The position numbers were made by a program, and so were the translations under genes. Below are positions 421-14,812 of a stretch of 64,000 nucleotides of DNA, in pieces; position 1 is the stretch's first letter, and each line of letters opens with the position of its first letter. The notes beneath the pieces are model-generated. The model was not told the DNA's origin. It worked only from the letters and a program-made list of their open reading frames with translations, and did no database searches. Source of the DNA: a virus (taxonomy: Duplodnaviria > Caudoviricetes); IMG/VR virus record IMGVR_UViG_3300031992_000021, positions 1-64,000 of that record. One strand, written 5' to 3'.

Positions 421-605
421 CTTCCCTCCCACTTGTCGCATACCTGGGCAGCGTCGGTGTAAAGGCCCGTACGTTCATCCTTCAAGTCGCTGTGAACGCA
501 CTGGTGAATACCGTCGTCCATCAGGTCTCGTCCATGTATGCACGTCGAGCAGCATCTGCCGCAGCTACGCAGGTTGTTCGCCTTCTTGAACTGTTCTGCA
601 GTCAT
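417..605 (-). CDS. small Cys-rich phage protein
   Basis: MTAEQFKK...CGRCCSTCIH...C..C. ATGA coupling to the HD gene. Confidence 0.6.
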   Translation of the reverse strand: MTAEQFKKANNLRSCGRCCSTCIHGRDLMDDGIHQCVHSDLKDERTGLYTDAAQVCDKWEGR

Positions 606-1225
606 GGCATCTTCCCGATGTTTTCCGTGATTCTGGTGGCAAGCTCGTCCGCGGCGATGATGACCGAAAGCAACGGGCACTTATCGCACGCCTTCCCGAA
701 GCTGTCGCGAGATTCGCGGTAGTCGGAGAGGTCCCAGCCGGCCATGTGCCAGCGGATCGCATAAATCTCGTCCTCCGTGAGATCCAGACCCATGCGGAGA
801 AGCCTTATCACGGACTTCTCGCCATGTCCCAGCGGACAGTGGCTCTGGTCGTTCTCGTAGGCGAGATACTTCTCCCAGCGGTCGTCCTTGTTCTTGCGGA
901 ACTTCTCGACCTGCCTGTACACCTCCGCCTTGCACACGTCGTGCAGAAGAGCGGCGATTGCGATGCTCTCCGGCCATAGCTTGTTCTCAAGCTCAGGGAA
1001 CATCTTCACCTGGACGGCGCGAATCTCCATCGCCTGCTCGTACACGTTCAGCGAATGCTGCAGCAGTCCGCCATCCTCGGCGAGGTGATGCTTCGCGGAC
1101 GCCGGCGCCTTGAAGAATCCTAGCTTCTCGATCCCGTCAAGGACCTTCTCGATGCCATTCCTGCCAGTTCCCATCAGAAGCTGCGTGAACAGCTCCTTGT
1201 TCTTCTCGATCTTTTCGTTGTCCAT
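602..1225 (-). CDS. HD-domain phosphohydrolase (YhaM-like phage family)
   Basis: Motifs APAS..HH....GGLLQHSLNV, LLHDVCK, GHGEKS, IRWHM, ADE. AAAGGAG RBS before ATG 1225. Confidence 0.9.
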   Translation of the reverse strand: MDNEKIEKNKELFTQLLMGTGRNGIEKVLDGIEKLGFFKAPASAKHHLAEDGGLLQHSLNVYEQAMEIRAVQVKMFPELENKLWPESIAIAALLHDVCKAEVYRQVEKFRKNKDDRWEKYLAYENDQSHCPLGHGEKSVIRLLRMGLDLTEDEIYAIRWHMAGWDLSDYRESRDSFGKACDKCPLLSVIIAADELATRITENIGKMP

Positions 1226-1236
1226 TGTTTCTCCTT

Positions 1237-1509
1237 TCATTTTCTGTAGTAAGCCGGGAAGTGCATCTTCACCGGCTTCATTTTGTACGTGAGCTTCCCG
1301 AACGCATCCTCGAGCGGGATCATGGTGCTTCCATCGTTCGCGATGTACGCCCATTTACGGATCTCATCAAGGATTCGTTCGGCAGCATACTTCAGGCAAG
1401 GCCAGTCGAGTCCGCCTGAACTCTCTATCAGCTCCCGATGCACAACCTTGCGCATCTGGTAGACGGTGAGCTCCACCATCTGCACCATTCCATCTTTCTT
1501 GCTCATCAA
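1237..1509 (-). CDS. hypothetical protein
   Basis: 90-aa ORF translationally coupled within the operon. Confidence 0.65.
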   Translation of the reverse strand: MMSKKDGMVQMVELTVYQMRKVVHRELIESSGGLDWPCLKYAAERILDEIRKWAYIANDGSTMIPLEDAFGKLTYKMKPVKMHFPAYYRK

Positions 1510-3999: not shown

Positions 4000-5343
4000 T
4001 CACCCGATGAACGGAAGATGATCGACGTCTGGCACGGAGATCTGCGAGAAACCCATCTCCGCGTACCGGCGCCTTCTTGCCTCGTCGTTCCTCGCAAGCA
4101 TTCCAGGCCGCCCGTTGTGGGCATCCCAGTCATGTGAGAAATCGACGAGGTAGACCTTTCCCTTGTTTGTCCACGGGAACTTGTTCCCCGCGAACTCCCG
4201 TCCTCCGCATGTCACTGACACCATGACATTCTGCGCAGTAGCCGGCGGGAAGCATTCCCATGTCGACAGGACGATAGCGGAGTTCCCTCCGGCTATGTTG
4301 TCGAACGCAATCCTGAGATCCTTTACAGGAACCCTTTTGTTGACAACCGTAACGCCAGGACCGCGAATCATGTCCGCAATCTTCTTTTGAATCTGGTCGT
4401 CCGAACAGACTACGCATCCGATGTCTCCAGGAGTTCTGCGGGCAATCTCATTCACTACGCCGAGGAAGGCGTCGCACATGGCTATCGACGAGAGAGTCTT
4501 GAACGGAGCAGAGCCCCATCTTGCATTCGGCCGCGGAGACTTCAGCCAACACACCGTCACGGGCGCCGCGATTCCGGCGTCTGCCGCATTCTGGTATGTG
4601 GCAGAAGAGCACAGCGGGCCAAACAAGCCTTCGGCCGCAAGATCCAGTTCGCACGGAAGACCTCCACACGCCGTCTCGTAGATCCCCCATCTCGCCGCGT
4701 TGCGGAAGACGGAGATATCCCTGGCTCTCTTCACCATGGACTTCTCGTCGAAGGTGACGTCCCCTATGAGTATGCCAACCTCCTTCATGGGATATGCGTC
4801 AAGGCTTCCGTACGGCGCAACGAGAACATCGTCGCTCGAGCAGTCGCCAAGTCCGACATTCCTGTCCGGAAGAATCTTCCTCATGGAGAAGCAGATCCTT
4901 CTGGCATCCTCCCTGTCTCGGGCAGCCACTACAAGGTGTGGCGTTCCGCGCTCGGCCAGACGATCCTTGTGGAACGCCCTTGCGATAGCGGACGCGAATC
5001 CTGTTATCCCGAACATCTCGGGAATGGCCACCACTCCGCCTCCTGCGGACAGGGCGTCTTTCACTACGCCATGCCACACAGCATCAACGCCTTCCAGCGC
5101 CTTATCGACATCAGGTTCGGGCATGGGTACGCGCTCGTCCTTGACTGCATCTTCCGGACACAGCCCAATCACGCGTTCGGCAAAACCCGGCATCGTCACC
5201 AGGGAGTGATGCTCACGAGAAAGCGTGTAGAGCTCTTCATACTCTCCGCTTCCGTCGGATCCATGCCTGAACCTGCTCAGACCGGACATCAGCTCCTGGC
5301 TTGGATATTCAACCACGATGGAGCCTCGTCCGATGCGAATCAT
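4000..5343 (-). CDS. SF2 (UvsW-like) helicase homolog with degenerate ATPase motifs
   Basis: Layout resembles UvsW-type helicases (EGLFGP, VYLVDFSHDW, ARRRRY..MGF). The Walker A site reads IPEMFGIT and the Walker B site reads ILIGDVT. Start from ATGA overlap. Confidence 0.6.
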   Translation of the reverse strand: MIRIGRGSIVVEYPSQELMSGLSRFRHGSDGSGEYEELYTLSREHHSLVTMPGFAERVIGLCPEDAVKDERVPMPEPDVDKALEGVDAVWHGVVKDALSAGGGVVAIPEMFGITGFASAIARAFHKDRLAERGTPHLVVAARDREDARRICFSMRKILPDRNVGLGDCSSDDVLVAPYGSLDAYPMKEVGILIGDVTFDEKSMVKRARDISVFRNAARWGIYETACGGLPCELDLAAEGLFGPLCSSATYQNAADAGIAAPVTVCWLKSPRPNARWGSAPFKTLSSIAMCDAFLGVVNEIARRTPGDIGCVVCSDDQIQKKIADMIRGPGVTVVNKRVPVKDLRIAFDNIAGGNSAIVLSTWECFPPATAQNVMVSVTCGGREFAGNKFPWTNKGKVYLVDFSHDWDAHNGRPGMLARNDEARRRRYAEMGFSQISVPDVDHLPFIG

Positions 5344-5609
5344 GCAAGATTCCACCTTTCGAGCTCTACCTCCGTGAACCCAAGATTCGACATCCTCCTG
5401 TTGCAAAGGAACGCAACAAGGTACAGAATGCCGCACACGACAGCCGCACACAACGCGACGGCAAACGCCGTAGTGAACGCAGTGGTGCGCACCACCATAA
5501 GCGCAAATGCGAACAATGCCATCGCCGCCTTCATGGCGACAGACGCATAGTACATCGCAGCATCTTTCATACGAAGCGCCCAGTAGGCGCAACTCATCTT
5601 CTTGCTCAT
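5340..5609 (-). CDS. small membrane protein
   Basis: 89 aa with two hydrophobic stretches, AAAGGA RBS. Confidence 0.65.
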   Translation of the reverse strand: MSKKMSCAYWALRMKDAAMYYASVAMKAAMALFAFALMVVRTTAFTTAFAVALCAAVVCGILYLVAFLCNRRMSNLGFTEVELERWNLA

Positions 5610-5661: not shown

Positions 5662-5691
5662 AAAAGGCCCTCCGGACGAATCCGGAGGGCC
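5662..5691 (-). terminator. intrinsic terminator closing the pentamer array
   Basis: Minus strand GGCCCTCCGGA-TTCG-TCCGGAGGGCC-TTTT: 11-bp perfect stem, UUCG loop, U-tract. Confidence 0.85.
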
Positions 5692-5698
5692 GTCGGTT

Positions 5699-6406
5699 GC
5701 AGCCGAGCATTTGTGCGCAACACATTGGAATGCCGCACATAACTTTGCCAAGCCTGCCTGATCGCGCCCTTCCTGGCTACTACATACCAAACCATGCCTG
5801 CCGGTCCGGACAATTCCGAGATCCGCCAGACCCAGCCTAACCAAGCCTGCCATGCAGTACCGAGCCTAGTCGAGCATAACCAATCCGATCACAACCTGCC
5901 ATGCTATACCCCTTTGTGCATGACAATGCCTTGCCCTGACAAACAATGCCAGCCAGACACCACCAATCAGGGCCGGACATGACTCAACCAAGCAACTCAT
6001 TGCTTCGCCTGCCGCTCCGGTCTGTACCAGACCACTCCGAACCGCTCCGGACATTTCCCTACCTTGCCTGCCACACTCTTCCGTGCCAAACATTTCCGCT
6101 CTCTGCCTCTCCAAGCCAATCTTAACCTGCCGTGCCAAACTGCGCTGAACCGGGCCGGTCATAGCCGGACAAAACCGGACATAACCTGCCGAGCCAAGCC
6201 ATGCAGATCAACTCACGACCGGGCCGATCAGGACCGGACATTGCCTGCCTGGCTATTCATTGCTGATCCCCGCTATTCACCGCCGAACTGGTCAGAACCT
6301 AACCGATCCAGCCGGGCAATTCAACGGGCAACTCCACGCAGCTATGCTTTGCATTGCCTGCCGAACCGGACACCACTCTGTAGAGTCATGCCCGTCCATG
6401 CCTGCA
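5699..6406 (-). ncRNA. putative guide-RNA array: 13 units of 4-nt delimiter + 8-12 D-G-H-N-N pentamers (VIPR-like)
   Basis: Delimiter hexamers (+ strand CCTGCC and variants) start at 5699, 5753, 5797, 5846, 5895, 5949, 6008, 6067, 6126, 6185, 6244, 6308, 6357, 6401. Spacings 54,44,49,49,54,59,59,59,59,59,64,49,44 are all 5n+4. By hand count, 119/130 pentamers have G at position 2 and 0/130 have G at position 3. Confidence 0.85.
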
Positions 6407-6422
6407 ATGGCGGATTGTGTGA

Positions 6423-6848
6423 TTATTTGTGGGAATCGATTGCTGTCCAGATGTCACTCAGACGCCTGAGGTGCGAATAGCGTTCACGAAGTCCGCGAAG
6501 CTGCTCAAGAGCGTCCCTCTCGGCAACAGCCATGAGGTCTTGTCTCTTCGCTACGTCGGAAGCAAGGCGATACGGGTTTTCGCCCCTGCCGCCAAGCCTG
6601 TCGGTCGAAAGCCCGATGAACATCGGAACCTCCGTCTTCTTGCCGTTGTCTTCGCACACGACGCGAAACGAGCGGATAAGACGTTGCGCCTGGTCAAGCC
6701 GATACTTTTCGGCCGCCACGCCGTCGTTCCACTCGAATGCGCTATGCAGCGGAGACTTCTCGTCGCGAGCCTCGTCAACCACGGCCTGCGGGCGCAACAG
6801 TCCCCCGTTGCGCTCCGCAATGGCCTTCAACGCTTCGATCTGCGTCAC
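6423..6848 (-). CDS. conserved phage protein, partner of the RAMP-like gene
   Basis: Motif L.P..VVDEARD..SPLHS.FEW.D..AAE.YRL.QA..LIR. GTGA overlap with the upstream gene; ends 16 nt before the array. Confidence 0.85.
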   Translation of the reverse strand: MTQIEALKAIAERNGGLLRPQAVVDEARDEKSPLHSAFEWNDGVAAEKYRLDQAQRLIRSFRVVCEDNGKKTEVPMFIGLSTDRLGGRGENPYRLASDVAKRQDLMAVAERDALEQLRGLRERYSHLRRLSDIWTAIDSHK

Positions 6849-7549
6849 TTCTTCGACCCTTTCTTCTCAAGCTTCATGACCTCTTCCTTGGTCGAGATCT
6901 CGAAGAGACCCCAGCCCATGCCGGCCGAACTCGTGGAGTCGGGACGGCCCTCGCAGATGCCGACCTGCATGCCGACACGCGCAAGAAGGTTGATGATGTC
7001 ATTCGCACGGAACTGGTCGGCATCGTAGCGGAAGCGCAAACGAGCGCCCCATTCGAGCCACTGGGGACGAACGGAGATGTCGGCGACCTTCTGGATTCCT
7101 CCGACGCGCACCATGCTCTCAAGCATCCTCGGCTCGCCGCCGATGATCTTGACCAGAGGAGTGCCCTCGTCGGCATCCCAGCCGTCCTCGAGAATGAAGA
7201 TCGACAACTTGGCGAGGCTCATCTTGAAGCCTACCAAACGGCAGGCCGAGATGCAGGCGTTCCTGAACGCTGCGGCGGGAATGCCGTCCCATCCCTCAAG
7301 GGAAAGGTGGCGTGCGCCGTTGAAGCATTCGGTGAAATCCTTTGCCTCTTTCTTCTTCCCCTTCGCGGCCGTGCTGCCGGCCTCCTGCTTCGCCTTGATG
7401 GCCATCTTGGCCTTGTGGCTGAACTTATGAATTACCAAGGGCGAAATGCCCTTGATCCAGATCTCTCCGATCTGCATGTTCGGAGGTGCGATGTGGATCG
7501 CTTCCTGCTTGACGTTGGCGCTATCGGCCTTCTTGTTTTCTTTGCCCAT
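6845..7549 (-). CDS. Cas7/RAMP-like protein, putative RNA-guided effector
   Basis: RAMP-type motif order: IKGISPLVIH (beta1), GIPAAAFRNAC (P..S/A.K/R helix), C-terminal Gly-rich loop VGMQVGICEGRP....GMGWGLF. AAGGAG RBS before ATG 7549; 234 aa. Confidence 0.75.
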   Translation of the reverse strand: MGKENKKADSANVKQEAIHIAPPNMQIGEIWIKGISPLVIHKFSHKAKMAIKAKQEAGSTAAKGKKKEAKDFTECFNGARHLSLEGWDGIPAAAFRNACISACRLVGFKMSLAKLSIFILEDGWDADEGTPLVKIIGGEPRMLESMVRVGGIQKVADISVRPQWLEWGARLRFRYDADQFRANDIINLLARVGMQVGICEGRPDSTSSAGMGWGLFEISTKEEVMKLEKKGSKK

Positions 7550-7630
7550 TTTGGACTCCTTGTTGTTTTGTTCTTGTTGTTGCCGGAAGCCAACCGGACA
7601 TTTTCCCGGCACCCGCCGGTGGGCTGAATG

Positions 7631-7717: not shown

Positions 7718-8824
7718 TCAGGCCTGCGTCGTCTGCGATTCGCCTTCCATGAACTTCTGGCAGATCAGGTGGATCGACGACGGATCCGGCGAGTGCAGCA
7801 TGCTCGAGATGAGCTTCGCCTCGTCGCTCTCCTTCGGGAACCTCGCCTCGATCGCCGATTCGAGCGTCGCAACGCTCTCCTTGCGGTCGACCACCGGCGC
7901 CAGATCACGCGCCTTGCTGGAGCGCATCACGATCCTCGCGATGGCGCACGTGTCGTGCACGATGGCGGCGATCCGCTTGTATCCGTCCTCTATCGAATCG
8001 TCCGCGATGATCTGGTAGAACGGGCGCTTCACTATCGGCATGTCCGCCGCTTTCTTCGCCTCCTCATCAAGGATGCGCCGAAACTCGTCAAGACCAACCT
8101 CGTCGACGATCTCCACGCCGACGACCTGCCTAGTATTTATCGGAACCGGCATCGCCTCCCATGTCTCGGTGTCAAGCACATAGAAGAACTTGTTCTGCGG
8201 CTCGTTCGACGACTTCATCTCGGTGGACCCCGGATTCACGTAGAGGACTCCGTTCCACTTCCGGCAGTCGGGGATATGCACATGCCCCATGAGCACGGCC
8301 TTCACCCCCAGCTTGTCGAGAAGCGGCGAGAGCTCCCTCACGCCGGTATCCGCGCTTCCTCCGCCGTTCATCTCGGCGAGCGCGAAGTGCATCACGAGGA
8401 TGTCGGTCTTGAAGCCCTCGTCCACCATCCTCTGAATCTCGGCGACCAAGTCCCTTCCGTTACGGTAGTTGATGCCGCTCATGCGGACGTTGCCGACCTG
8501 CGCATAATAGCCTTCCTTCATCGGCTCTACTCCGATGACGTCGAGCCATCCTCCGTTGGAAAGGTCGTGATTGCCGTCGATTCCGTAGACAGGCAATCCT
8601 GCGGACTTGATTTCCGCTACGACCCCCTGCGCCGTGAGAACAGACTTCGCGTCCGGACGCGGCGAATCGAACAGGTCGCCGCCTATCACGACAGCGTCCA
8701 GATTCAACTCTCCGAGACTGCGCCCGAACTCCATGAATGCGTCGAGGAAGTCCTCGTAGCGCTCCTTCAGCCCATACTGCCGCGTGCCAAGATGCACGTC
8801 GCTTACCAAGGCAATTCTTGCCAT
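7718..8824 (-). CDS. sbcD: SbcD/Mre11 nuclease
   Basis: Metallophosphoesterase motifs SDVHLG, GGDLFD, GNHD, GHVH, NPGS; adjacent to Rad50. Confidence 0.95.
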   Translation of the reverse strand: MARIALVSDVHLGTRQYGLKERYEDFLDAFMEFGRSLGELNLDAVVIGGDLFDSPRPDAKSVLTAQGVVAEIKSAGLPVYGIDGNHDLSNGGWLDVIGVEPMKEGYYAQVGNVRMSGINYRNGRDLVAEIQRMVDEGFKTDILVMHFALAEMNGGGSADTGVRELSPLLDKLGVKAVLMGHVHIPDCRKWNGVLYVNPGSTEMKSSNEPQNKFFYVLDTETWEAMPVPINTRQVVGVEIVDEVGLDEFRRILDEEAKKAADMPIVKRPFYQIIADDSIEDGYKRIAAIVHDTCAIARIVMRSSKARDLAPVVDRKESVATLESAIEARFPKESDEAKLISSMLHSPDPSSIHLICQKFMEGESQTTQA

Positions 8825-8825
8825 G

Positions 8826-11150
8826 TCAGTCCTCCTTGTTGATGATTGCCCCGAGATCGATCCTCGTGTCGAGAAACGGCATGATCGCCTTCTCGTGTGT
8901 CGCCATGAGAATCTGCAGGCCCTTGTTCCTCGCGACCTCCCCGACCTTCTGGAGAAGCTCCCCGAGATGCCCGATCGACGCGTCGTCCAGGTACGCCGTA
9001 GGCTCGTCCAGGCTGAGAAGCCCGAGCTCGCCGCCGAAGCACATGTAGATCGCCATGCGGAACGCGATGGCCAAGGCCACCTTCTGCCCTCCGGAGAGGA
9101 GCGATGCGTCCGGATGCGGATCCGGCATGCTGCGGCCGTCGATGAAGCAGCATCGGAAGCCGAAGCCCTCCTCCTCCGCCTCCACGACGAACGGTGCGCA
9201 GAACTGGTCGAGATACGAGTTGACGCACGCGGTCAGCTCCTTCATCACGTTCTGAGACATGATCCGCGGACCTTCCCTGTAGTGGAACCAGTCGCGGGAA
9301 CGCTTGAGCGTGTCGACCTTCGCCTTGACCTTCTCCTCGAGCTCCTTCTTCTGCACGAGCTCGTCCACGAAGCTCCTCGTCTTCTTGATGGTCTCCTCGG
9401 CGGCCTCAAGCTGACCCTTCGTTCCTGCCATGTCGCGCAGGATGCCGTTGTAGGCGTCGAGGTTTGCCCTTGCCTTCCTGAGCGCATTGTCGCAGGATCC
9501 TTCGTCTCCGTTCTTCACGGACTCTGGATCGATGCCCAGGCCGACGAGCTTCTCCGCGCAGTCGCGCCGGTTGTTCCCGATGAGGTCGATCTGGGCGGCA
9601 AGCTTCGCCACGTTGTCGCGGGCGTCCTTCGCCTGCATCTTCGTGGATTCGATCGCGCTCAGCGACTTCGAGATCTCGGACATGCGGTCATTGATCTCGC
9701 CTATCCTGTTCTGGACGTGAACCTGCGTCTTCTGGATGTTCGGAAGGTCGTCAGGCGTCTGGCCCTTGTACGACACGACCTGCGTGAGCACGTCGATCTC
9801 GCACCCCTCGACATTTGCGTCTTTCGCCTTCTGCAAGGCGGCAAACGCGATGTCGTACGCGTTCTTCTCCCGCTTCTCCTTCTCGCGTGCGCCCTGCTCC
9901 TCGGCCCAGCGCTTGTCATAAGCCATCCGGGCTTCCTTCGCCTTGTCGCATGCAGACTTGGACCTTTCCTCCGCGGCCGAGATCCTCTCCTTGAGGTGCT
10001 TCTCGATGTCCTCCTGCGACGCCTGAGCTCCGCAAACTGGACACGTTCCGTCGCTGCTCGCCTCCTTTACGAGGTTGCGCAGAGACCTAAGTTCAGACTC
10101 GGCCGAAACCTGCTCAGCTCCAAGACGTTCGACCTCGGCATTGTCGTCCTCGATCTTCGTCTTGTACTTTCCGGTGATGTCGTTGAGCTCTGCCGTGGCG
10201 GCGCCGTAGCGCTCGCTTGCGCACGTCAATGCGTCTGCAAGCTCCTTCATCCGAGAGAGGAACCTCACCGACTCCTTGCATTCGTCAAGCTCCTTACGCT
10301 TGATGTCGAGCTCCGCGGAAAGTTCGGCATGCTCATTCCTGAGCTTCTGCCACTCATCCTCGGACACTGCCCCCATGCCTGCGAGCTTCGCAAGAGCGCT
10401 CTCGTGCTGGGCCTGCGTATCGGCGAGCGCCTGCTCGGCCCTCACATACGCAGCGATCGCCTGCTGTGCGCCGGCGCACTGGTCGACCTCCGCCTCAAGC
10501 GATTCCTTGCTCGGAAGCGTCTTGACTGCGTTCTCGTACTTGGCGAGAGCCTCGCGGCACTTCTTCGCGACCGCCTCCTGGTCTGCAAGCTGCTGCCGCG
10601 CCCTTGCGATCGCCTCGTCGAATCCCTGAGGCTTGTCATACGCCGCGATCTCGGTACGCAGCGCCTCGTATATCTTCGACGCGTTCCCGATTCCGATGAG
10701 CCGCTGGAAAGCGACTTCGCGGTTCTTGGGATCGTCGAAGAGGATCGCGTCGATTCCCTTCTGGGGAACGAACACGATCTGGCGTATCAGTTCCTTGTCG
10801 AGACCCGCCTTCTCGCGCAGGGCCTCCTCGACCTTCTTGGCCTGCTTGACCGTCTCGTCGCCCACCTTCAGGACGACGTCTCCGTTTGTCTTCCTGGTTA
10901 CGACGAACTCGTCGTTCCGCGGTCCGGCCGTGAAGAACAGCCTCACGGATCCTTCCTTCTCGCCCCATGTCGTGAGGTCGGCCTTGGTGAATCCAGGCTG
11001 CTCTCCGGTAAGGGCGAACTGTATCGCTCCGATCAGGTTGGACTTGCCGCACCCGTTCGGCCCGAGCACGGCGATCAGATTGCCGCTGAAGTCAACGTCC
11101 AGCTGGCGGTGCTGACGGTAGTTCGTCAGCTCAATCCTTTTCAAGTGCAT
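8826..11150 (-). CDS. sbcC: SbcC/Rad50 SMC-like ATPase
   Basis: Walker A GPNGCGKS, coiled coil with CPVC zinc hook, signature LSGGQ, Walker B LSLDEPT, H-loop ATH. Confidence 0.95.
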   Translation of the reverse strand: MHLKRIELTNYRQHRQLDVDFSGNLIAVLGPNGCGKSNLIGAIQFALTGEQPGFTKADLTTWGEKEGSVRLFFTAGPRNDEFVVTRKTNGDVVLKVGDETVKQAKKVEEALREKAGLDKELIRQIVFVPQKGIDAILFDDPKNREVAFQRLIGIGNASKIYEALRTEIAAYDKPQGFDEAIARARQQLADQEAVAKKCREALAKYENAVKTLPSKESLEAEVDQCAGAQQAIAAYVRAEQALADTQAQHESALAKLAGMGAVSEDEWQKLRNEHAELSAELDIKRKELDECKESVRFLSRMKELADALTCASERYGAATAELNDITGKYKTKIEDDNAEVERLGAEQVSAESELRSLRNLVKEASSDGTCPVCGAQASQEDIEKHLKERISAAEERSKSACDKAKEARMAYDKRWAEEQGAREKEKREKNAYDIAFAALQKAKDANVEGCEIDVLTQVVSYKGQTPDDLPNIQKTQVHVQNRIGEINDRMSEISKSLSAIESTKMQAKDARDNVAKLAAQIDLIGNNRRDCAEKLVGLGIDPESVKNGDEGSCDNALRKARANLDAYNGILRDMAGTKGQLEAAEETIKKTRSFVDELVQKKELEEKVKAKVDTLKRSRDWFHYREGPRIMSQNVMKELTACVNSYLDQFCAPFVVEAEEEGFGFRCCFIDGRSMPDPHPDASLLSGGQKVALAIAFRMAIYMCFGGELGLLSLDEPTAYLDDASIGHLGELLQKVGEVARNKGLQILMATHEKAIMPFLDTRIDLGAIINKED

Positions 11151-14735: not shown

Positions 14736-14812
14736 TGGCGGAGATGCCGGGGATCGAACCCGGAACCTGCGGTTTAGGAAACCGCCGCTCTGTCCAATTG
14801 AGCTACACCTCC
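14736..14812 (-). tRNA. tRNA-Arg(CCT)
   Basis: 77-nt cloverleaf GGAGGTG...CATCTCC-GCCA. D-arm GCTC/GAGC, anticodon arm GCGGT-TTCCTAA-ACCGC, T-loop TTCGATC. Confidence 0.95.

Follow-up and report, generated by a model that had tools for sequence, protein, structure and literature searches.

A VIPR locus with a staggered, relaxed-scaffold guide array in an uncultured rumen phage and its probable targets among the replication genes of other phages

Results

A minimal RAMP gene, an accessory gene and a non-coding array

The window analysed here (64,000 nucleotides, the first part of a viral record of 162,950 bp) contains a minus-strand locus made up of a vipr gene, a vap-like accessory gene and a pentamer array, with a terminator and a candidate promoter (Table 1). 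The AF2 model of the vipr product, P0001 (pLDDT 89), has Cmr4, Csm3, type VII Cas7 and gRAMP as its top Foldseek matches (probability 1.0, E 1e-5), and VIA-align gives Z scores of 11.1 for a Cmr4-type protein and 10.9 for Csm3, all 50 of the 50 listed rows being CRISPR RAMPs. The C-terminal Gly-rich loop is invariant in the family (G214, G218, G222, R223, G231 and G235). P0001 matches phrog_4652 and no Pfam family, and HMMER finds 2238 relatives at E ≤ 0.001, counted as 50%-identity cluster representatives. No cas family is present among the eight flanking ORFs scanned around vipr, and the vipr locus has no nuclease. From the modelled fold, the Gly-rich loop and the neighbouring genes, P0001 can be classed as a predicted minimal RAMP encoded outside any CRISPR-cas locus.

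Table 1. Minus-strand features of the locus, in window positions
Feature	Position	Strand	Description
Intrinsic terminator	5666..5691	-	11-bp stem with 9 G-C pairs, TTCG loop, then TTTTCAATTT; predicted to close the array transcript
Staggered vrRNA array (predicted units)	5694..6410	-	About 13 units of 8-12 pentamers (D-G-H-N-N), closing 4-mer GCAG or GCTG
Neighbouring guide	6131..6189	-	11 NN, decoded as xKADGGYGKGY, motif of AAA_24 (Sak4-like) ATPase genes
Guide A	6190..6248	-	11 NN, decoded as [DE]x[IM][DE]TRG[DE]GG[FL], conserved Prim-Pol (AEP primase-polymerase) motif
Guide B	6249..6312	-	12 NN; dinucleotides 3-12 decoded as F[DE]P[IM]P[DE]G[DE]Y[DE], DUF669 N-terminal motif
Candidate sigma-70-like promoter	6422..6449	-	TGGACA, 16-base spacer, AATAAT; 10 of 12 consensus positions; consensus match only
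vap-like accessory gene (P0002)	6423..6848	-	141 aa; 4-base overlap with the vipr stop
vipr gene (P0001), lone Cas7-like RAMP	6845..7549	-	234 aa from ATG at 7549; ORF open to GTG at 7612

The accessory protein, P0002, matches phrog_15946 but no Pfam family; Foldseek returns nothing for it at E ≤ 0.001, and VIA-align does not exceed Z 4.5, with weak winged-helix-like rows over residues 1-91. A P0002-like gene adjoins the vipr homologue in the related loci L008-L012, and a P0002-like ORF precedes vipr in L005. As for the surrounding genes, those immediately upstream of vipr (7718-11150, minus strand) encode SbcD-like (Metallophos) and SbcC-like (SMC_N) nucleases, an arrangement also seen in L008, L009 and L011, and the other flanking ORFs scanned match no family; a 530-aa ORF without a Pfam or PHROG match lies just 3' of the array terminator (4000-5592, minus strand); and an HD-domain/TraI_2-like protein of 250 aa is encoded at 602-1354 (minus strand).

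The array region is a non-coding stretch of about 720 bases flanked by two minus-strand genes. On the plus strand, a C occupies each fifth base in 91 of the 95 pentamers of nine clean units, and the phase slips by -1 at every plus-strand CTGC or CAGC 4-mer, so that the clean units measure 49, 49, 54, 59 (five times) and 64 bases, all of them 5n-1. The pentamer pattern in these 95 pentamers is H-N-N-D-C on the plus strand, that is, D-G-H-N-N on the RNA strand; within this scaffold the middle G is present in 96% of pentamers and the first G in 58%, and A is tolerated at the Y position. The entropy of the NN letters is 1.9 bits per position, compared with 1.4-1.6 for both flanking scaffold letters. 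By its unit lengths and the -1 slip at each junction, the array would count as staggered, the cut sites themselves being predicted. The candidate promoter sits directly upstream of the array, and a 1227-nt contig from a sheep-gut metatranscriptome (RNA library) is identical to 5770-6996, which gives a weak hint that the array is transcribed, DNA carry-over being possible. A scan with Rfam found no match in the array, its sole match in the window being a tRNA gene (14739-14812, minus strand), and a TRF scan of the window found no CRISPR-type repeat.

Assignment to the VIPR systems

VIPR systems, described in 2026, combine a minimal RAMP, Vipr, with an accessory gene, vap, and with vrRNAs built from 9-16 YNNGG repeats. 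In these vrRNAs the NN letters base-pair with double-stranded DNA, and one target base in three, usually the wobble base, is skipped; the natural targets of the systems are rival phages and satellites, mostly with perfect matches (bioRxiv 10.64898/2026.04.26.720920). That the NN letters direct targeting has been established biochemically (10.64898/2026.04.26.720920; 10.64898/2026.04.26.720927), and the mechanism has been explained by cryo-EM structures (10.64898/2026.04.26.720927). Relaxed scaffolds (NNNGG, YNNNG and NNNNG) have been listed, and staggered vrRNA arrays overlap by one nucleotide according to the legend of fig. S18 in the same work (10.64898/2026.04.26.720920). The characterised examples, from Escherichia phage SUSP1 and a Pseudomonas fulva prophage, are of type II, and it is for type II systems only that the 1-nt skip rule has been proven (10.64898/2026.04.26.720920).

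The locus is a natural VIPR system with a staggered, relaxed-scaffold array, of a kind already published, because it combines a pentamer array of 5n-1 units, the RAMP fold with its G-loop and a conserved three-part module, and because these fit the published description. Like the known systems, it has a lone minimal RAMP with a small accessory gene, is borne by a phage and has no self-targets; its guides are pentamers with a scaffold and two free letters (8-12 pentamers here, 9-16 in the published systems), one target base is skipped at the codon wobble position and the predicted targets are codon-determining positions in conserved genes of rival mobile elements. As far as the fig. S18 legend describes staggered arrays, the lack of a spacer or tail and the one-base overlap are also shared, and 5n-1 lengths with GGCAGG-type junctions are how such an array would be expected to look. 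On the other hand, the scaffold is D-G-H rather than GGY, no long 3' tail or pseudoknot separates the units, the accessory protein, of no recognisable fold, may or may not be one of the published vap1-6, the targets found are replication genes (Prim-Pol, DUF669 and AAA_24) and the likely host is a PVC-group rumen bacterium, not a proteobacterium. The published Vipr set comprises the seed X1U2U4 and its PSI-BLAST family (10.64898/2026.04.26.720920); that the present protein belongs with that set is a prediction from fold, array and gene order.

P0001 also shares the fold of the Cas7 backbone proteins of class 1 CRISPR effectors (Csm3/Cmr4 and Cascade Cas7; Z 9-11), and in both cases one protomer would cover a fixed stretch of guide, with a thumb breaking the duplex periodically. 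In contrast to class 1 CRISPR, however, there are no CRISPR repeats, other cas genes or adaptation genes here, two bases pair in each period of 5, against five in each period of 6, and the VIPR guide itself bears a sequence-specific scaffold.

Guide B matches DUF669 genes

The preliminary description of this locus had read [FL][DE]P[IM]P[DE]G[DE]Y in unit 6250-6313 (one base off the coordinates of Table 1, with no effect on the reading) and had proposed DUF669 genes as the target, a match of at least 10 dinucleotides being its threshold. This proposal is borne out. Guide B has the NN letters TG AT TT GA CC AT CC GA GG GA TA GA, and its nine-dinucleotide core, an 18-base pattern, has 65 exact matches in IMG/VR, 64 of them in frame; the matching sites encode F[DE]P[IM]P[DE]G[DE]Y in the N-terminal part of small proteins. 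For comparison, the 18-base, 9-NN core of unit 5954-6012, taken as the empirical chance level, has one IMG/VR match. Ten consecutive dinucleotides of the 12 are reached by 21 IMG/VR matches, and all five target ORFs scanned match PF05037 (DUF669; E 8.5e-22 to 2e-3), four of the five above the Pfam cut-off. The full-length exact pattern with one skipped base has no match in IMG/VR or GTDB genomes, and an 11-NN version has no exact match in metagenomes. Guide B is, by these matches, a predicted reader of the N-terminal FxPIPxGxY motif of DUF669 genes.

Guide A matches Prim-Pol rather than dUTPase genes

The NN letters of guide A (GA AA AT GA AC CG GG GA GG GG TT) decode as [DE][KN][IM][DE]TRG[DE]GG[FL]. 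The preliminary description (unit 6191-6249 in its coordinates) had the closing RG[DE]GG[FL] right letter for letter and took it for motif V of trimeric dUTPases. In two scans, which yielded at least 222 matches with 7 or more of the 11 dinucleotides and in which families were sorted by a motif filter, the seven-dinucleotide core matched dUTPases and a second family. That dUTPase genes are the target is very improbable: the last six or seven dinucleotides, (T)RG[DE]GGF, are indeed carried by dUTPases, and 19 in-frame dUTPase-like matches (GGFGST) occur among those listed, but these reach only 7-8/11, short of the threshold of 10, and none of the matches listed at 9/11 or 10/11 is dUTPase-like. 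At 9/11 there are at least 108 matches, 97 of them Prim-Pol-like among the matches listed, and at 10/11 at least 15, all Prim-Pol-like among those listed; in both groups the motif is IETRGEGGF or GIDTRGEGGF and APS or APT comes next, and the upstream [IM][DE]T context fits Prim-Pol. The Pfam scan agrees, with all five target ORFs scanned being PF09250 Prim-Pol fused to AAA_25, D5_N or DUF3987 helicase domains. We chose Prim-Pol over dUTPase because RG[DE]GGF is common to both families, so that it is the five upstream dinucleotides that discriminate. The full-length exact pattern with one skipped base has no match in IMG/VR or JGI metagenomes. Guide A is thus assigned, on its matches, to the IDTRGEGGF/IETRGEGGF motif of Prim-Pol genes and not to dUTPase, which illustrates that six residues taken by themselves can mislead, RGxGGF being common to two unrelated families.

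The neighbouring guide matches AAA_24 genes

In loci fetched for the other guides, the neighbouring guide reaches 9/11 with a skip of one base and with no other skip, a score equalled by 1 of 400 shuffles, and the match falls on EKADGGYGKGY. The one hit ORF scanned, in L154, matches PF13479 at 4e-45 and adjoins the DUF669 gene there. The 10-NN pattern of this guide (10/11) has 62 exact matches in IMG/VR, every one of them in frame, and 55 exact in-frame matches in genome contigs (species genomes). These genome matches (L354-L408) come mostly from Kiritimatiellae, Lentisphaeria, Victivallales, Verrucomicrobia and Planctomycetota MAGs, many of them from the fore-stomachs of sheep, goats and deer. 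A strain variant, T6133A, present in contigs of runs X5, X9 and X14, changes GT to GA and would give 11/11. The predicted reading of this guide is EKADGGYGKGY of AAA_24 (Sak4-like) ATPase genes.

Independent loci, gene order and self-targets

An independent test set of 117 loci was chosen with the neighbouring guide alone, without guides A and B. In these loci guide A has 23 matches at 8/11 or better, a count reached by none of 500 shuffled guides, and guide B has 62 matches at 7/12 or better, a count reached by 1 of 500. With skips of 0, 2 or 3 bases instead of one, guide A has no match at 8/11 or better and guide B only 1-8 at 7/12 or better. Judged computationally, the predicted targets obey the 1-nt skip rule: NN falls on codon positions 1 and 2, and the wobble base is skipped. 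The AAA_24, DUF669 and Prim-Pol matches lie on one strand, in gene order, on single contigs (e.g. L311, L321, L351 and L342). The best matches of guide A, guide B and the neighbouring guide sit on different contigs and in different phage groups; on contigs that have all three genes, guide A reaches only 8-9/11 and guide B only 7-8/12, about 65-80% of the dinucleotides. Cross-tests of guide A on DUF669-selected loci and of guide B on Prim-Pol-selected loci gave background only. For 10 of the 13 units no target was found, the remaining window units not rising above shuffles in about 2.6 Mb of fetched loci, and most units of the arrays in L001-L003, L008 and L010 likewise have no match above shuffles in those loci.

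In the phage's own genome, no unit matches better than permuted guides at target periods 2-6 (0-4 skipped bases); the best match at a skip of one base is 5-7 dinucleotides per unit (about 50-67% of 9-12), equal to the permuted controls, and there is no self-target at 80% NN match or more, which is the VIPR criterion. None of PF00692 (dUTPase), PF05037 (DUF669), PF09250 (Prim-Pol) and PF13479 (AAA_24) is encoded anywhere in the 162,950-bp record. The preliminary description had noticed neither of its two motifs among the proteins of the window, which holds for the whole record as well; its suggestion that the guides aim at conserved motifs in competing phages agrees with our results, but its alternative, the regulation of genes in the phage's own genome, does not, there being no match above permuted guides.

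Related arrays and strain turnover

Pentamer arrays lie beside vipr/vap homologues in L001-L003, L005, L006, L008 and L010, and those of L001 and L006 have a clean GGC-NN pattern with GGCAGG junctions. In the locus whose Vipr is 81% identical (L010), one guide matches a second DUF669 motif at 9/11, a score that none of 400 shuffles attains. Between unit 5954-6012 of the window and 2751-2810 of L010, nine consecutive NN are kept (18 of 18 bases) while the scaffold letters mostly differ; by eye, scaffold position 2 agrees in two of these nine pentamers and position 5 in five. Unit 5954-6012 decodes as P[KN]GG[CW][HQ][KN]T[FL], with a single IMG/VR match of unclear meaning. Seven NN (AT GA CC AG CA TA AA) are also common to 5802-5850 of the window and 3148-3192 of L010, in a shifted register, and these too yielded no target.

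A strain with a 98% identical Vipr (L008) has 6 of 12 units in common with the window and lacks both guide A and guide B, and other strains differ at NN positions 6133, 6192 and 6266. Strains seem to differ by whole array units. Contigs of runs X3, X9 and X14 join the array differently within 5790-6050 of the window, the junction variants being a step back of 49 bases, a replacement of 3 bases by 52 and a step back of 113 with 88 other letters between.

Two further kinds of array were seen among the relatives. In L004 (1940-2310) and L005 (3090-3470), whose Vipr is 58% identical, the scaffold is C-G-C, not G-G-C, with GCAGGC junctions kept and the array upstream of the vap-like and vipr genes. 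The arrays of L001 (5130-5400) and L006 (5150-5640) are of low complexity, with NN mostly GA, GC, GG and CA and with whole units duplicated; they are unlike guides to ordinary coding DNA, and no matches were obtained for them.

Discussion

Our main reading, to which we would give a probability of roughly three in four, is that guides A and B are vrRNA guides of the staggered array of a phage VIPR system and target replication genes of rivals. In the mechanism we propose, transcription of the array would run along the minus strand, starting at about 6420 and stopping at the terminator, and the transcript would then be cut into units; each pentamer would bind one Vipr protomer, with D-G-H (a relaxed G-G-Y) buried and NN presented; and the Vipr filament would pair NN with double-stranded DNA with every third target base skipped, so that the guide would read codon positions 1 and 2 and ignore the wobble base. 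The three adjacent guides would in this way read motifs of DUF669, Prim-Pol and AAA_24, which are one replication/recombination module of other phages and of prophage-like contigs. Many of the contigs with the target module belong to MAGs of Kiritimatiellae, Lentisphaeria and Victivallales from the ruminant gut, where the phage also lives. Because no nuclease is encoded at the locus, the replication genes of a rival phage would most likely be silenced at the level of transcription, during co-infection or in a lysogen. Filament, triplex and repression are taken over from the literature by analogy, and we infer both the activity in vivo of partial matches (83-91% of dinucleotides) and the identity of the actual rival.

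VIPR has so far been tested only in proteobacterial type II systems, and the present locus adds an example from an uncultured rumen phage, with a looser scaffold and a tail-less staggered array in which three adjacent guides decode directly to three genes that are neighbours in a rival replication module. It also confirms the 1-nt skip rule independently, purely by computation, in a distant branch. One published VIPR guide is fixed on those positions of a satellite recombinase that determine its codons (10.64898/2026.10.15.759431). As a target class, phage replication genes did not turn up in word searches of the discovery and satellite-conflict papers (main texts), where neither 'DUF669' nor 'dUTPase' occurs in the former (10.64898/2026.04.26.720920) and none of 'primase', 'DUF669' and 'AAA_24' in the latter (10.64898/2026.10.15.759431).

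How broad the targeting would be is a separate matter. It is quite possible, if at somewhat less than even odds, that every guide is exact for a single site in some particular unsampled rival phage or satellite and that the family-wide partial matches are a shadow of motif conservation, with no broad panel behind them. The mostly perfect matches of published natural targets (10.64898/2026.04.26.720920) would fit such a situation, as would the NN differences between near-identical strains at 6133, 6192 and 6266, one of which would lift the AAA_24 guide from 10/11 to 11/11, and the scatter of the best matches of the three guides over different phage groups. Against it, no exact full-length target was found for guide A in IMG/VR and JGI metagenomes or for guide B in IMG/VR and 185,579 species genomes; moreover, the 3'-terminal dinucleotides may not be read, in which case guide B already has perfect 10/10 targets.

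More tentatively, and against the odds as we see them, the array could be a standing panel of family-level guides set on the least mutable codons of the AAA_24 ATPase/DUF669/Prim-Pol helicase-primase module. If that were true, the module would be one that many temperate phages of rumen Kiritimatiellae and Lentisphaeria share, and a 163-kb phage that lacks it could keep nearly every resident prophage or co-infecting rival from replicating, tolerating one or two mismatched dinucleotides at the guide 3' end. This would amount to RNA-guided superinfection exclusion directed against a gene module and not against one enemy.

It is improbable that the motif matches are a coincidence of short degenerate strings in very large databases and that the units have other targets or none. 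By our own rough estimate, about one chance 10/11 match is expected per random guide in the approximately 1e11 positions of IMG/VR, and 10 of the 13 units do show background matches only. Since a single 10/11 match is expected about once by chance, the case for VIPR guides against rival replication genes rests on reading frame, family-wide recurrence and synteny. In these respects the matches depart from coincidence: 64 of the 65 guide B matches and all 62 of the neighbouring guide keep the reading frame, the counts are 60 to more than 100 times the one empirical baseline (a single match of an 18-base pattern), shuffled guides fail in independently chosen loci, where a skip of one base alone works, and three adjacent guides map to three syntenic genes.

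Least credible of all is that the array is a periodic RNA or DNA scaffold binding a multimeric protein (a TRAP-like ring, an annealase ring or a Rho loading site) with uninformative NN letters, an idea for which the 10-13 pentamers per unit and the low-complexity arrays of L001 and L006 could be cited, but which is at odds with NN letters that are conserved while scaffold letters drift and that match foreign coding motifs in frame, with the Cas7-like RAMP next door and with the published biochemistry on NN-directed targeting (10.64898/2026.04.26.720920; 10.64898/2026.04.26.720927). An RNA wrapped around a ring (TRAP-like or annealase), a site for Rho loading and a coat-protein assembly site with 5 nt per subunit had each been considered and were rejected in view of the relatives, the RAMP fold and the in-frame matches.

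From an ecological perspective, the taxa in which the targets of the neighbouring guide are found suggest a PVC-group host for the 163-kb phage.
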